A DNA stretch of 64,000 nt from the NCBI RefSeq assembly GCF_054482595.1, contig NZ_CM137008.1. The stretch is one strand, 5' to 3'. The translations under genes were made by a program, and so were the position numbers. The notes under the pieces are model-generated. The model worked only from the letters and a program-made list of their open reading frames with translations, ran no database searches and was not told the DNA's origin. Position 1 is the stretch's first letter. Every line of letters starts with the position of its first letter. Positions 8,219 through 32,500 of the stretch are shown here, one piece after another.

Positions 8219-9916
8219 TCAAAGCAATAACGTAGCCTGTGAGGCGACTGGGGTGCGTTGGTTAGGAATGTAAAACGCAATTTCCGTTCCTGGTTCCAGG
8301 CGGCGGATATGCAGCCCCTCGCCATACAATAACTTCACGCGATGATGGACATTCAGCAGGCCAATTTTATTGCCCGGCATTTCATTCGCTTCGACCCGCT
8401 CAATCACCTTTGGATCGATGCCGTGCCCGGTATCCCGCACGGCAATGCGTACCCGATTGCCGCACTCTGCAACGCTGATGGTGACAACGCCTTTACCTTT
8501 GCAAGGCTGGATACCGTGGACAATGGCATTCTCCACCAACGGCTGGATCAGCAGGCTGGGAATGCAGCAATTCACCTCTTCATCAATATCATAGATAACC
8601 GTCAGCTTGTCGCCAAAGCGGGCCTGCTCAATGGCAATATAGTCTTTAATTTGATACAGCTCTTTTTTGATATCGATTTGCTCATCGTCTTTTAATTCAA
8701 TGTTATAGCGCAGATAACGCGACAGATTAAAGATCAGCTGGCGAGCAGTATCCGGATTCAGACGGATTGACGATGAAATAGCGTTCAAAGCGTTAAACAG
8801 GAAATGGGGATTAATTTTGCTTTGCAGGGCGCGAAGCTCTGCCTTATTTGCCATTTCACGTAGCTGCTCGGCGCGTGAAACCTCCAGTTGCGTGGAGATG
8901 ATTTGCGACAGACCAACCGCCATTTCCTGTAATGACGAGGTTATCTGATGCGCGTGGCAGTAGTAAATTTTCAGCGTTCCGGTCACAACGCCTTTCTCCC
9001 ACAATGGGATCACCAGCATGGAATGAATCTCTGGTGTGCGGTGGGCTTCATCATTGTTTTTAATGATGATTTTTCCGTAATTCATCGCCTGACGGGTAGT
9101 CGGGCTAATGAAGTCATCGCCATTCTGATAGTTATGTTCACCCACGCCAACATAGGCCAGCACATGATCGGTATTGGTAATCGCCACCGCATCGGCGTGA
9201 ATGTCATCGCGAATAATTTCACAAACTTTGCGTAATGACTCGCTATTGACATGGCGAAACAGAGGTAGCGTTTTGTTGGCGATATCCAGCGCCAACTTGG
9301 CCTGCCGCGCGGCGCTGGCCTCTTTTTCGCCCTCAACGCTTTGCACCAGAAGCACAATAAAGCCGATACAGACGCTGCCGAGGATCATTGGAATCCCGAT
9401 TTTAGAGACGATATCGATCCCCAACGCGGTAGTTGGTGCCCAGACAATCACCAGAATCATGGTCAACGTTTCACACAACATGCCGCCGAGAATACCGACG
9501 CGCCAGCGCTGTGCTTTGGGGATTTTCAGGTTGATCCAGCCCGATATACAACCAGCCAGAATGCTGGTGATAAAGCAGGGGATCGCCGTCACGCCACCGA
9601 TATCAATTAAATAACGATGAATACCCGCAATCACGCCGGTAATGATGCCCACCCACGGGCCAAACAGAATCCCGCCGGACATCACCGCGATAATACGTAC
9701 GTTCACCAGCGAGCCTTCTACGGGAACGCCGGACCAGGTGCTGAAGAGGGCGAACAGAGAGAAAATGGCGGTAACGGCGAGCAACTCTTTCGGTGAGTGT
9801 GCCGACTTGTGCAACAGTTCGCGAAACAGGCGGATACGGATGAGAAAGAACAGGCAGATAAGCATTAACGCTGCCCGATCGAAGACCGCCAGCAGCATGT
9901 TGAATATTTCGTGCAC
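8219..9916 (-). CDS. ypdA: Sensor histidine kinase (LytS-like, membrane domain plus GAF and HATPase)
   Basis: 565 aa ORF with N-terminal multi-TM region and C-terminal histidine-kinase ATPase motifs (DTGHGI); immediately upstream of ypdB. Confidence 0.85.
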
Positions 9917-28053: not shown

Positions 28054-29382
28054 TTAACGGCCTTTTGCCAGATATTGATTCATCTCTTCTTCCGGCACCA
28101 TTCCACCTCCCGTCGCCCACACCAGATGAGTGGTATTACGCAGTTGTTCTGCGCTGAAACCGTGCATCTGTTGGTAACTTACTGATGCACACACGCGCTG
28201 AGGTCCGGTCATACCCGCCAGTGCCGAAGGTTCAAGACGAATACCTTCTTCCTGCGCCAGCCAGCCAAGCATGTCATACATGGTTTGATCGCTAAGGGTA
28301 TAGAAGCCATCCAGCAGACGCTCCATTGCCCGCCCGACAAAGCCTGATGCGCGACCAACTGCAAGGCCATCCGCTGCGGTAAGGTTGTCGATACCAATAT
28401 CCTGAACAGAAATCTGATCGTGTAATCCTGTATGGATGCCTAACAGCATACAAGGGGAGTGCGTTGGTTCGGCAAAAAAGCAGTGAACATGATCGCCAAA
28501 CGCCAGTTTAAGTCCGAATGCGACGCCACCAGGACCACCGCCAACACCACACGGCAGATAGACAAACAGAGGGTTATCAGCATCGACGATACGGCCTTGC
28601 TGGGCAAATTGCGCTTTAAGACGCTGGCCAGCGACGGAATACCCAAGGAACAACGTGCGGGAATTTTCGTCATCAATAAAGAAACAGTTCGGGTCAGACT
28701 GCGCTGCTTTACGTCCTTCCTCGACGGCAACACCATAATCTTGCTCATATTCCACGACCGTAACGCCATGGCTGCGCAGTTTCGCTTTTTTCCATGCCCG
28801 GGCATCAGCAGACATATGCACTGTCACCTTAAAGCCAATGCGGGCGCTCATAATGCCGATTGATAACCCCAGATTTCCGGTTGAGCCCACAGCAATGCTG
28901 TATTGGCTAAAGAACTGTTTAAACTCCGGAGAAAGCAGTTTGCTGTAGTCATCATCAAGCGTCAGCAACCCCGCTTCCAGAGCCAGTTTTTCTGCGTGTG
29001 CCAGAACTTCATAAATCCCGCCGCGTGCTTTTATGGAGCCGGAAATGGGCAAATGGCTATCTTTTTTCAGTAACAGTTGCCCGCTGATCGGTTGTTGATA
29101 TTCCTTTTCCAGCCGTTTTTGCATAGCCGGAATGGCAACCAGTTCTGATTCAATAATCCCCCCAGTAGCAGCAGTTTCAGGAAATGCTTTTGCCAGATAG
29201 GGTGCAAAACGGGATAAGCGCGCATGGGCGTCCTGAACATCCTGTTCGGTCAGGCCAACATAAGGTAAACCTTCAGCCAATGAGGTCGTGCCAGGATTAA
29301 ACCAGGTGGTTTCTTTAAGAGCAACCAGATCCTTTACCAACGGATACTGGGCGATGAGCGAGTTCATTTTAGCGTTTTCCAT
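28054..29382 (-). CDS. dsdA: D-serine ammonia-lyase (PLP-dependent)
   Basis: 442 aa ORF with PLP-lysine motif (SGSIKARGG); recognised DsdA. Confidence 0.9.
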
Positions 29383-29399
29383 AGTACGTCTCTTTGCGC

Positions 29400-29630
29400 T
29401 TAGATGATAAATGACAGCAGGAATGTGCCCGCCAGAGCGACGACTGAAGCGATAAATGTCGCTGTCGTATAGTATTTAAATGTTTCATTGAGCGTAGCGC
29501 CGCAATATTGCTTCACCAGCCAGAAAAGCGAGTCCGTAACGATCGTGCAGCCAATTGCGCCTGAACCGATAGCAATCGCAATAATTTCCGGGCTGATGTC
29601 GGGATACAGCGGCAGCACAATGATCCATAT
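29400..29630 (-). pseudogene. dsdX: 3' remnant of dsdX (D-serine permease, GntP family)
   Basis: Only about 72 C-terminal codons (…[27 protein letters not shown]) remain; in-frame stop immediately upstream of 29630; the rest of dsdX and all of dsdC are absent. Confidence 0.7.
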
Positions 29631-29848
29631 TTATATTTTCTTCTCCAGGTTGGCGATGCCAGTTGGCATGTTTTTCTTACTTGCCTATATGGTTACTCGT
29701 TGGCGAGAACAGAGGCGGAATTGGGGACAATTGGCCGGGAATTATTGTTATTTTTTATTGTATTGCCGTGTCAGGTGATAGGGCGTTGGATCTCGCCAGT
29801 GACGTCTGTTTCTGCTACAGTGCCCGTTTTACGACAAACGGCTTGGGT

Positions 29849-30844
29849 ATGGCTTCATTAAAGGATGTCGCACGCCTGGCGGGAGTGTCGATGATGACAG
29901 TCTCCCGGGTGATGCATAATGCAGAATCTGTGCGTCCTGCAACGCGTGACCGCGTATTGCAGGCAATCCAGACCCTGAATTATGTTCCTGATCTTTCCGC
30001 CCGTAAGATGCGCGCTCAAGGACGTAAGCCGTCGACTCTCGCCGTGCTGGCGCAGGACACTGCTACCACTCCTTTCTCTGTTGATATTCTGCTTGCCATT
30101 GAGCAAACCGCCAGCGAGTTCGGCTGGAATAGTTTTTTAATCAATATTTTTTCTGAAGATGACGCTGCCCGCGCGGCACGTCAGCTGCTTGCTCACCGTC
30201 CGGATGGCATTATCTATACTACAATGGGGCTGCGACATATCACGCTGCCTGAGTCTCTGTATGGTGAAAATATTGTATTGGCGAACTGTGTGGCGGATGA
30301 CCCAGCGTTACCCAGTTATATCCCTGATGATTACACTGCACAATATGAATCAACACAGCATTTGCTCGCGGCGGGCTATCGTCAACCGTTATGCTTCTGG
30401 CTACCGGAAAGTGCGTTGGCAACAGGGTATCGTCGGCAGGGATTTGAGCAGGCCTGGCGTGATGCTGGACGAGATCTGGCTGAGGTGAAACAATTTCACA
30501 TGGCAACAGGTGATGATCACTACACCGATCTCGCAAGTTTACTCAATGACCACTTCAAATCGGGCAAACCAGATTTTGATGTTCTGATATGTGGTAACGA
30601 TCGCGCAGCCTTTGTGGCTTATCAGGTTCTCCTGGCGAAGGGGGTACGTATCCCGCAGGATGTCGCCGTAATGGGCTTTGATAATCTGGTTGGCGTCGGG
30701 CATCTGTTTTTACCGCCGCTGACCACAATTCAGCTTCCACATGACATTATCGGGCGGGAAGCTGCATTGCATATTATTGAAGGTCGTGAAGGGGGAAGTG
30801 TGACGCGGATCCCTTGCCCGCTGTTGATCCGTTGTTCCACCTGA
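29849..30844 (+). CDS. cscR: Sucrose operon repressor (LacI/GalR family)
   Basis: ORF 29663..30844; N-terminal HTH begins at MASLKDVARLAGVSMMTVSRV (29849), giving 331 aa. Confidence 0.85.
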   Translation: MASLKDVARLAGVSMMTVSRVMHNAESVRPATRDRVLQAIQTLNYVPDLSARKMRAQGRKPSTLAVLAQDTATTPFSVDILLAIEQTASEFGWNSFLINIFSEDDAARAARQLLAHRPDGIIYTTMGLRHITLPESLYGENIVLANCVADDPALPSYIPDDYTAQYESTQHLLAAGYRQPLCFWLPESALATGYRRQGFEQAWRDAGRDLAEVKQFHMATGDDHYTDLASLLNDHFKSGKPDFDVLICGNDRAAFVAYQVLLAKGVRIPQDVAVMGFDNLVGVGHLFLPPLTTIQLPHDIIGREAALHIIEGREGGSVTRIPCPLLIRCST

Positions 30845-30851
30845 TATTATG

Positions 30852-32285
30852 CTAACCCAGTTGCCAGAGTGCTCCATGTTGCACCACAGCCACTCCGTGG
30901 GAGGCATAAAGCGACAGTTCCCGTTCTTCTGGCTGCGGATAGATTCGACTACTCATCACCGCTTCCCCGTCGTTAATAAATACTTCCACGGATGATGTAT
31001 CGATAAATATCCTTAGGGCGAGCGTCTCACCCTGCGGGAGGAGAATACTACGGTAGCCGTCTAAATTCTCGTGTGGGTAATACCGCCACAAAACAAGTCG
31101 CTCAGATTGGTTATCAATATACAGCCGCATTCCAGTGCCGAGCTGTAATCCGTAATGTTCGGCATCACTGTTCTTCAGCGCCCACTGCAACTGAATCTCA
31201 ACTGCTTGCGCGTTTTCCTGCAAAACATATTTATTGCTGATTGTGCGGGGAGAGATAGATTGATGCTGCTGGCGTAACGACTCAGCTTCGTGTACCGGGC
31301 GTTGTAGGAGTTTGCCATTGCTCTCTGATAGCTCACGCGCCAGCGTCATGCAGCCTGCCCAGCCTTCACGTTTTGAGGGCATTGGCGATTCCCACATATC
31401 CATCCAGCCGATAACAATACGCCGACCATCCTTCGCTAAAAAGCTTTGTGGTGCATAAAAGTCATGCCCGTTATCAAGTTCAGTAAAATGCCCGGATTGT
31501 GCAAAAAGTCGTCCTGGCGACCACATTCCGGGTATTACGCCACTTTGAAAGCGATTTCGATAACTGTATCCCTCGGCATTCATTCCCTGCGGGGAAAACA
31601 TCAGATAATGCTGATCGCCAAGGCTGAAAAAGTCCGGACATTCCCACATATAGCTTTCACCCGCATCAGCGTGGGCCAGTACGCGATCGAAAGTCCATTC
31701 ACGTAATGAACTGCCGCGATAAAGCAGGATCTGCCCCGTGTTGCCTGGGTCTTTCGCCCCGACTACCATCCACCATGAGTCGGCTTCACGCCACACTTTA
31801 GGATCGCGGAAGTGCATGATTCCTTCTGGTGGAGTGAGGATCACACCCTGTTTCTCGAAATGAATACCATCCCGACTGGTAGCCAGACATTGTACTTCGC
31901 GAATTGCATCGTCATTACCTGCACCATCGAGCCAGACGTGTCCGGTGTAGATAAGTGAGAGGACACCATTGTCATCGACAGCACTACCTGAAAAACACCC
32001 GTCTTTGTCATTCTCGTCTCCTGGCGCTAGCGCAATAGGCTCATGCTGCCAGTGGATCATATCGTCGCTGGTAGCATGTCCCCAGTGCATTGGCCCCCAG
32101 TGTTCGCTCATCGGGTGATGTTGATAAAACGCGTGATAACGATCGTTAAACCAGATCAGGCCGTTTGGATCGTTCATCCACCCGGCAGGAGGCGCGAGGT
32201 GAAAATGGGGATAGAAAGTGTTACCCCGGTGCTCATGAAGTTTTGCTAGTGCGTTTTGCGCTGCATGCAATCGAGATTGCGTCAT
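30852..32285 (-). CDS. cscA: Sucrose-6-phosphate hydrolase / invertase (GH32)
   Basis: GH32 motifs (WMNDPNG, FRDPKV, WECPD); ORF extends to 32294, start taken at MTQSRLHAAQ. Confidence 0.85.
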   Translation of the reverse strand: MTQSRLHAAQNALAKLHEHRGNTFYPHFHLAPPAGWMNDPNGLIWFNDRYHAFYQHHPMSEHWGPMHWGHATSDDMIHWQHEPIALAPGDENDKDGCFSGSAVDDNGVLSLIYTGHVWLDGAGNDDAIREVQCLATSRDGIHFEKQGVILTPPEGIMHFRDPKVWREADSWWMVVGAKDPGNTGQILLYRGSSLREWTFDRVLAHADAGESYMWECPDFFSLGDQHYLMFSPQGMNAEGYSYRNRFQSGVIPGMWSPGRLFAQSGHFTELDNGHDFYAPQSFLAKDGRRIVIGWMDMWESPMPSKREGWAGCMTLARELSESNGKLLQRPVHEAESLRQQHQSISPRTISNKYVLQENAQAVEIQLQWALKNSDAEHYGLQLGTGMRLYIDNQSERLVLWRYYPHENLDGYRSILLPQGETLALRIFIDTSSVEVFINDGEAVMSSRIYPQPEERELSLYASHGVAVVQHGALWQLG

Positions 32286-32319
32286 TTTAATCATCCTGGT
32301 TAAGCAAATTTGGTGAATT

Positions 32320-32331
32320 GTTAACGTTAAC
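32320..32331. promoter_or_regulatory. Candidate CscR operator (perfect palindrome GTTAACGTTAAC), copy 1
   Basis: 12 bp perfect palindrome in the cscA/cscK divergent promoter; identical copy 64 bp downstream. Confidence 0.5.
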
Positions 32332-32364
32332 TTTTATAAAAATAAAGTCCCTTACTTTCATAAA

Positions 32365-32380
32365 TGCGATGAATATCACA
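32365..32380. promoter_or_regulatory. CRP-like site in the csc divergent promoter
   Basis: TGCGA-tgaata-TCACA resembles the TGTGA-N6-TCACA consensus with one mismatch. Confidence 0.35.
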
Positions 32381-32383
32381 AAT

Positions 32384-32395
32384 GTTAACGTTAAC
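32384..32395. promoter_or_regulatory. Candidate CscR operator (perfect palindrome GTTAACGTTAAC), copy 2
   Basis: Identical 12 bp palindrome; central CG as in many LacI-family operators. Confidence 0.5.
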
Positions 32396-32500
32396 TATGA
32401 CATTTTGTGATCGAATATGCATGTTTTAGTAAATCCATGACGATTTTGCGAAAAAGAGGTTTATCACTATGCGTAAGTCAGATGAATTTAAGGGAAAAAA

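Follow-up and report, generated by a model that had tools for sequence, protein, structure and literature searches.

Two identical palindromes in the cscA/cscK intergenic region as probable CscR operators set in a conserved geometry with CRP sites

The ability of E. coli W to use sucrose, which many wild strains share (O157:H7 among them), comes from the csc regulon, and this regulon has been engineered for industrial fermentation of sucrose and molasses. Two copies of the same palindrome lie between its divergent genes cscA and cscK, in a stretch of 64,000 nucleotides (contig NZ_CM137008.1 of RefSeq assembly GCF_054482595.1) that is termed the window. Which protein binds these sites, and why should there be two of them at this spacing? 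We conclude that they are very probably operators for the repressor CscR, forming a cassette of fixed geometry in which the proximal site (O-prox) would block transcription of cscA while the distal site (O-dist) would hinder its activation by CRP.

The csc locus and its duplicated palindrome

Across the palindrome region the window is 100% identical to E. coli O157:H7. The locus comprises cscR (29849-30844, + strand), encoding a LacI-family repressor of 331 amino acids; cscA (30852-32285, − strand), encoding a sucrose hydrolase of family GH32 (477 amino acids); cscK (32501-33415, + strand), encoding fructokinase (NF006957, with a score of 505.7 bits where the cutoff is 450); and cscB (33487-34734, + strand), encoding a sucrose:H+ symporter of the LacY family. 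In RefSeq cscK is labeled 'aminoimidazole riboside kinase', and cscR and cscB carry no gene name. The csc genes are flanked by a truncated dsdX remnant and dsdA on one side (29383-29848, with dsdA itself at 28054-29382 on the − strand), and by a DUF4942 fragment and a recombinase gene on the other (34735-36300). The site is the known argW/dsd hotspot of recombination. The stop codons of the convergent genes cscR and cscA are separated by only 7 bp (30844-30852), and those of Cedecea even share sequence. Since this leaves no space for terminators, transcripts arriving from the two sides must overlap. The longest open reading frame for cscA begins at 32294; the true start codon is the ATG at 32285, as in the RefSeq annotation and in the orthologues, with AGGA 8 nt upstream of it. 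The cscA/cscK intergenic region is 215 bp in length, with 29% GC.

The sequence GTTAACGTTAAC is found exactly at 32320-32331 (O-prox, with its center 40.5 bp from the cscA ATG) and again at 32384-32395 (O-dist), i.e. 64 bp apart from start to start. It is equal to its own reverse complement, reading GTTAAC/GTTAAC with CG at the center, so that each copy is a perfect 12 bp palindrome with dyad symmetry. The first-pass annotation described just such a pair between the divergent genes, and its coordinates are exact. The repeated unit is longer than the palindrome, extending over 17 nt as AA(T/A)TGTTAACGTTAACT. A central CpG and dyad symmetry are typical of LacI/GalR operators, as in the complexes of PurR and LacI, and the sites here have the same form, being dyad symmetric, within the range of ~12-20 bp, and having a central CpG step. 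They also lie in the promoter region of catabolic genes, beside cscR as the gene for the cognate LacI-family protein.

Perfect 12 bp palindromes occur at 17 positions in the window, close to the chance expectation, and GTTAACGTTAAC is the only one that is present twice. A duplicated 12 bp palindrome arose in 18 of 100,000 mononucleotide shuffles of the 215 bp, 29% GC intergenic region, and the analytic joint expectation is ~3e-6. Elsewhere in the 64 kb there is a single copy with one mismatch, GTCAACGTTAAC at 37622-37633. This is probably a chance occurrence; it lies in an AT-rich, frameshifted hypothetical pseudogene (by the O157:H7 annotation) downstream of the csc island.

We note that five of the 17 perfect palindromes cluster within ~800 bp around the csc promoter. 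Those at 32137-32148, 32671-32682 and 32938-32949 lie inside the coding sequences of cscA and cscK, and served as a control. None is conserved in another species, and we take the clustering to be an apparent coincidence. One coding palindrome, TAACGATCGTTA, specifies the FNDRY that is conserved in the GH32 hydrolase. A reading of the region as an RNA element was rejected, as a scan against Rfam gave only one chance hit of 13.8 bits.

Conservation of the palindromes and earlier work on csc operators

Close relatives were found by a search with CscK, taking one genome per species. This gave five loci, from Escherichia sp., a divergent E. coli, two Citrobacter amalonaticus and Pluralibacter gergoviae (where CscK is 64% identical), and in all five both palindromes are exact and 64 bp apart. 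The invariant blocks in the alignment of these loci include ATTGTTAACGTTAACTTT (32317-32334) at O-prox, TGTTAACGTTAACT (32383-32396) at O-dist and the CRP half-sites. Outside these and the blocks TTTTGTGATC and GGTTTATCA that are discussed below, the alignment is variable.

A more distant set was assembled from CscR orthologues of 56-79% identity, reading the contigs around each. In all of the distant loci except that of Providencia, the first catabolic gene is preceded by two palindromes at a spacing of 62-64 bp. The phylogenetic footprint covers both copies in 10 of 11 further lineages with a CscR in this range of identity, i.e. Escherichia sp., divergent E. coli, Citrobacter amalonaticus, Pluralibacter, Tatumella, Pectobacterium, Cedecea, Yersinia, Enterobacter and a Serratia-like locus. 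Among 11 orthologous loci, O-prox is exact in 10 and has one mismatch in E. cloacae, while O-dist is exact in every one. The mean column identity in the promoter alignment is only 65%, and yet the palindromes are exact in all copies but that one. The DNA-reading residues of CscR, in the helix-turn-helix and the hinge, are invariant among the same orthologues.

This conservation bears on whether CscR is the protein that binds. A different factor, such as Cra/FruR or another LacI-family protein, might recognize the palindromes, or they might be a non-functional local duplication. The central AACGTT does resemble the core of several LacI-family operators, but the outer bases of the half-sites are unlike the Cra consensus, and in 11 loci that vary in gene order and genomic context the motif is strictly associated with a cscR orthologue. 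The remainder of the 64 kb offers only the imperfect copy in the AT-rich pseudogene, and the Rfam scan provides no match. Neutral duplication is excluded because exact conservation spans genera. Moreover, deletion of cscR is reported to derepress csc (PMC3938415). We therefore consider these possibilities highly improbable, and return to CscR as the probable ligand of both sites.

The pair and its reading as presumed CscR operators were already published in 2002, so that the present result is a confirmation rather than a discovery; the finding is correct, and ordinary. As relayed in PMC11251922, Jahreis et al. (2002) identified putative operators for CscR in two 12 bp inverted repeats of the cscA-cscK intergenic region, found an up-mutation leading to derepression in one of the two, and placed a Crp-cAMP site in the csc promoter adjoining the −35 element. 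According to the same account the repeats flank the cscA −35/−10 elements with the downstream one overlapping the start site, and an operator mutation has been reported in strain EC3132. Stephens et al. (2024) found the repeats to be conserved in five species (PMC11251922). Repression of csc 'is thought to occur' via intergenic operator sites (PMC3938415, 2014); this source also describes a spontaneous and recurrent operator mutation by which strain W can grow on low sucrose, and refers to two cAMP-CrpA sites. Repression by CscR, dependence on CRP and the derepressing mutation in one operator are thus taken from the literature, while the non-random nature of the sequence, its conservation and its geometry come from the analysis made here. 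In the literature searched we found no CscR binding assay (EMSA or footprint) on the operators, and the published operator assignment is known to us second-hand. A full-text search with the 12-mer returned only unrelated cloning primers.

The element in the window is the same as the csc operators of EC3132 and W (Jahreis et al. 2002; Sabri et al. 2013; Stephens et al. 2024). There too, the cscA promoter lies between two 12 bp inverted repeats and has a CRP site by its −35 element, and there is no difference of substance from O157:H7. The E. coli W sequence is 99% identical, and its palindromes are identical; the few SNPs that separate it from the O157:H7 allele (e.g. at 32402 and 32477) lie outside them. 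The comparison with characterized strains that had been proposed in the first-pass annotation leads to the same repeats, insofar as the published account relays them.

Within E. coli the region is carried by 2662 of 5426 complete genomes (at ≥98% identity), and in the variants sampled every SNP falls outside the palindromes. Megablast queries of 30 bp, for which the match is lost upon a mismatch in the central 26 bp, found the 26 bp core to be exact at O-prox in 2510 of 2660 carriers (94%) and at O-dist in 2626 of 2662 (98.6%), where these figures count genomes and not independent events. By the use of shifted queries, the number of genomes altered inside the 12 bp of O-prox is estimated as roughly 28 or fewer, subject to end trimming and double SNPs. 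A SNP is present in the 28 flanking bp in ~800 genomes.

Predicted CRP sites and promoters, and a natural deletion

A predicted CRP site lies between the palindromes. CRP site 1, TGCGATGAATATCACA (32365-32380), matches nine of the 10 core positions, i.e. it has one mismatch to TGTGA-N6-TCACA. The first-pass annotation had placed a CRP-like site at this position, but its description as half-matched understates the agreement, and it missed a second site beyond O-dist. This is CRP site 2, TGTGATCGAATATGCA (32406-32421), which matches seven of the 10 core positions. It overlaps the block TTTTGTGATC (32403-32412) that is invariant in close relatives, and in Yersinia its match rises to 10/10. The center of CRP site 1 is 47 bp from that of O-prox and 17 bp from that of O-dist, while the center of CRP site 2 is 24 bp from O-dist and 41 bp from CRP site 1. 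O-dist is thus placed between the two CRP sites.

This geometry is shared by 10 of the 11 loci, in the order O-prox, 47 bp, CRP site 1, 17 bp, O-dist, 24 bp, CRP site 2 (as distances between centers). The CRP cores match at 7-10 of 10 positions across the loci, with 7-9 for CRP site 1 alone. Two loci depart from the general pattern. In Providencia a single palindrome precedes cscK by ~90 bp and cscA has none in its vicinity (8498-8733 of the locus), and in Tatumella there are two palindromes 62 bp apart with no recognizable CRP sites (8397-8530 of its locus).

A scan of 32200-32600 for consensus sigma-70 promoters and terminators found nothing. For the promoter this is what one would expect if it depends on an activator; as a result, only conservation and the geometry of the CRP sites were used to place the promoter positions given here. 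Taking CRP site 1 to be at −41.5 relative to cscA, a putative −10 element TATTTT (32339-32344, − strand) falls at −12 to −7, and the start of transcription would be near 32332. The −10 block is kept as CTTTAT(T/C)TT in the closer relatives. With a 9/10 match and TATTTT at a fitting distance, set against the negative consensus scan, the geometry of CRP site 1 fits that of a class II activator site (−41.5) for cscA. O-prox is then predicted to cover approximately +2 to +13 of the cscA transcript, and O-dist would be centered at approximately −58.5, abutting CRP site 1. This layout agrees with the published account in PMC11251922.

On the side of cscK, the invariant block GGTTTATCAC (32458-32467, + strand; GGTTTATCA, 32458-32466, in the alignment of the close relatives) contains a putative −10 element, TATCAC (32462-32467). 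The block is invariant in the six loci that have a divergent cscK, and suggests a cscK start near 32475, which would place CRP site 2 at approximately −61.5 (class I) and O-dist at approximately −85. We also observe an 18-codon open reading frame, MRKSDEFKGKKCQPKYGF (32469-32525), that begins ahead of cscK and runs across its start codon. The ATG of this frame is not kept, being GTG in Citrobacter and missing in Pluralibacter. It is probably not a gene, and may lie upstream of the cscK transcription start.

The first-pass annotation had proposed paired LacI-family operators by which CscR would control both promoters. The assignment to CscR is supported by the conservation between genera and by the literature, but a division of one operator to each divergent promoter is not. 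If O-prox served cscA only and O-dist served cscKB only, the two being functionally unlinked, single-operon loci that have no divergent gene would not be expected to keep both copies at the same spacing, and yet they do. Divergent cscK is lacking in Tatumella, where cscA stands alone, and in Pectobacterium, Cedecea, Yersinia, E. cloacae and the Serratia-like locus, where there is a cscBA operon; the pair is present in each. In addition, O-dist is 17 bp from CRP site 1, compared with ~75 bp from the conserved −10-like block of cscK. We consider independent operators to be improbable. Because the pair is kept without divergent cscK, it brackets a single CRP-dependent promoter, which here is that of cscA, and the distal copy in E. 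coli is common to cscA and cscKB.

Some strains have lost part of this arrangement. Among partial-coverage matches to the region we picked out an exact deletion of 64 bp between the 17 bp direct repeats in the complete genomes of E. coli O84:H7 Trh52, O78 strain 3 and CT265. The intergenic region in these strains is 151 bp (L007 3968-4118, L018 1483-1633 and L021 1471-1621). One hybrid palindrome is left, and with the loss of CRP site 1 and of the putative −10 element cscA is probably promoterless. The three strains have A>T at 32289 in common but differ at other SNPs, so that the deletion may have arisen once or several times. As a pair of direct repeats, the two sites thus form a natural hotspot for deletion, by which the cscA promoter is removed in some strains.

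Proposed repression by CscR at two sites

The geometry suggests how CscR could act at the two sites. A CscR dimer bound at O-prox would lie on or just downstream of the cscA start, and so would block RNA polymerase. A dimer bound at O-dist would abut CRP site 1 and lie between both CRP sites, and its presence would most likely hinder CRP-dependent activation of cscA, and in E. coli that of the divergent cscKB also. On binding inducer (sucrose or a product of sucrose) CscR would leave both sites, whereupon cAMP-CRP could activate both transcription units. Repression of cscKB would not be simple occlusion, because O-dist is ~85 bp upstream if cscK starts near 32475. Instead, CscR at O-dist would most likely interfere with the CRP dimers on either side of it; the other option is cooperation with O-prox.

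Such cooperation might take the form of looping, which the first-pass annotation had raised as a possibility. CscR bound at both operators would bridge them, leaving the CRP site and the promoter in a loop of 64 bp, comparable to lac O1-O3 and gal OE-OI. The spacing is 62-64 bp in all loci, i.e. ~6 helical turns, which is compatible with sites on the same face of the helix, and the pair is retained even where there is only one promoter. The order operator-CRP-promoter-operator also resembles that of lac (O3/CRP/O1) and gal (OE at −60.5 and CRP at −41.5). Yet promoter geometry, with O-prox at the start, CRP at −41.5 and O-dist abutting CRP, explains the fixed spacing equally well, and a loop of 64 bp would be very tight. 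Furthermore, residues 3-318 of CscR align to residues 5-313 of the 360 of LacI, and CscR ends at 331. Nine CscR orthologues are 331-336 amino acids in length, and none has a C-terminal tail. Since CscR lacks the C-terminal tetramerization helix, looping of the LacI type is not supported, and that route is not available to it. We regard looping in general as unlikely, and favor the blocking of cscA at O-prox together with the hindrance of CRP at O-dist.

In gal and lac, as predicted here, an upstream operator lies by the CRP site and a second operator is downstream of the start, and the operators are palindromes of the LacI/GalR type with a central CG. In gal, OE at −60.5 is combined with CRP at −41.5, compared with a predicted −58.5 (approximately) and −41.5 in csc. 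The operator spacing is 64 bp in csc, compared with 113 bp in gal and 92 bp in lac, and the csc operators differ from those of gal and lac in being identical perfect palindromes, read by a repressor without the LacI tetramerization helix. At CytR-CRP promoters such as deoP2, a LacI-family site is placed between tandem CRP sites; this is also the layout in csc, where O-dist has a predicted CRP site on each side, at 17 and 24 bp. However, the CRP sites are 41 bp apart in csc, compared with 52-53 bp in the CytR promoters, and CytR sites are weak and CRP-dependent whereas the csc palindrome is strong and perfect. We know of no cooperativity between CscR and CRP. The O1 and O2 sites of ScrR at the scrY promoter (pUR400, Klebsiella), compared here by description only, are 14 bp repeats in the PTS pathway for sucrose. 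The scr CRP site is reported to be poorly conserved (PMC11251922), while the csc CRP sites are well conserved. The regulators that were looked up in seeking a true scr (PTS) locus all proved to be of the csc type.

What is added here to the published account is incremental, i.e. the spacing of two operators and two CRP sites that is kept across genera without a divergent promoter, the lack of a tetramerization tail in CscR, and the alleles with the 64 bp deletion. Knowledge of the exact positions of the CscR and CRP sites should help in the design of derepressed or tunable promoters. More tentatively, we infer from these observations that the csc promoter could be an ancient Enterobacterales cassette of fixed geometry, in which O-dist represses mainly by excluding or disabling the two flanking CRP dimers, i.e. 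by anti-activation. If true, this would account for the control of cscKB by a repressor that has no tetramerization domain and is bound ~85 bp upstream, and it would be related to the mechanisms of CytR and of GalR at OE, but with a strong, autonomous operator.
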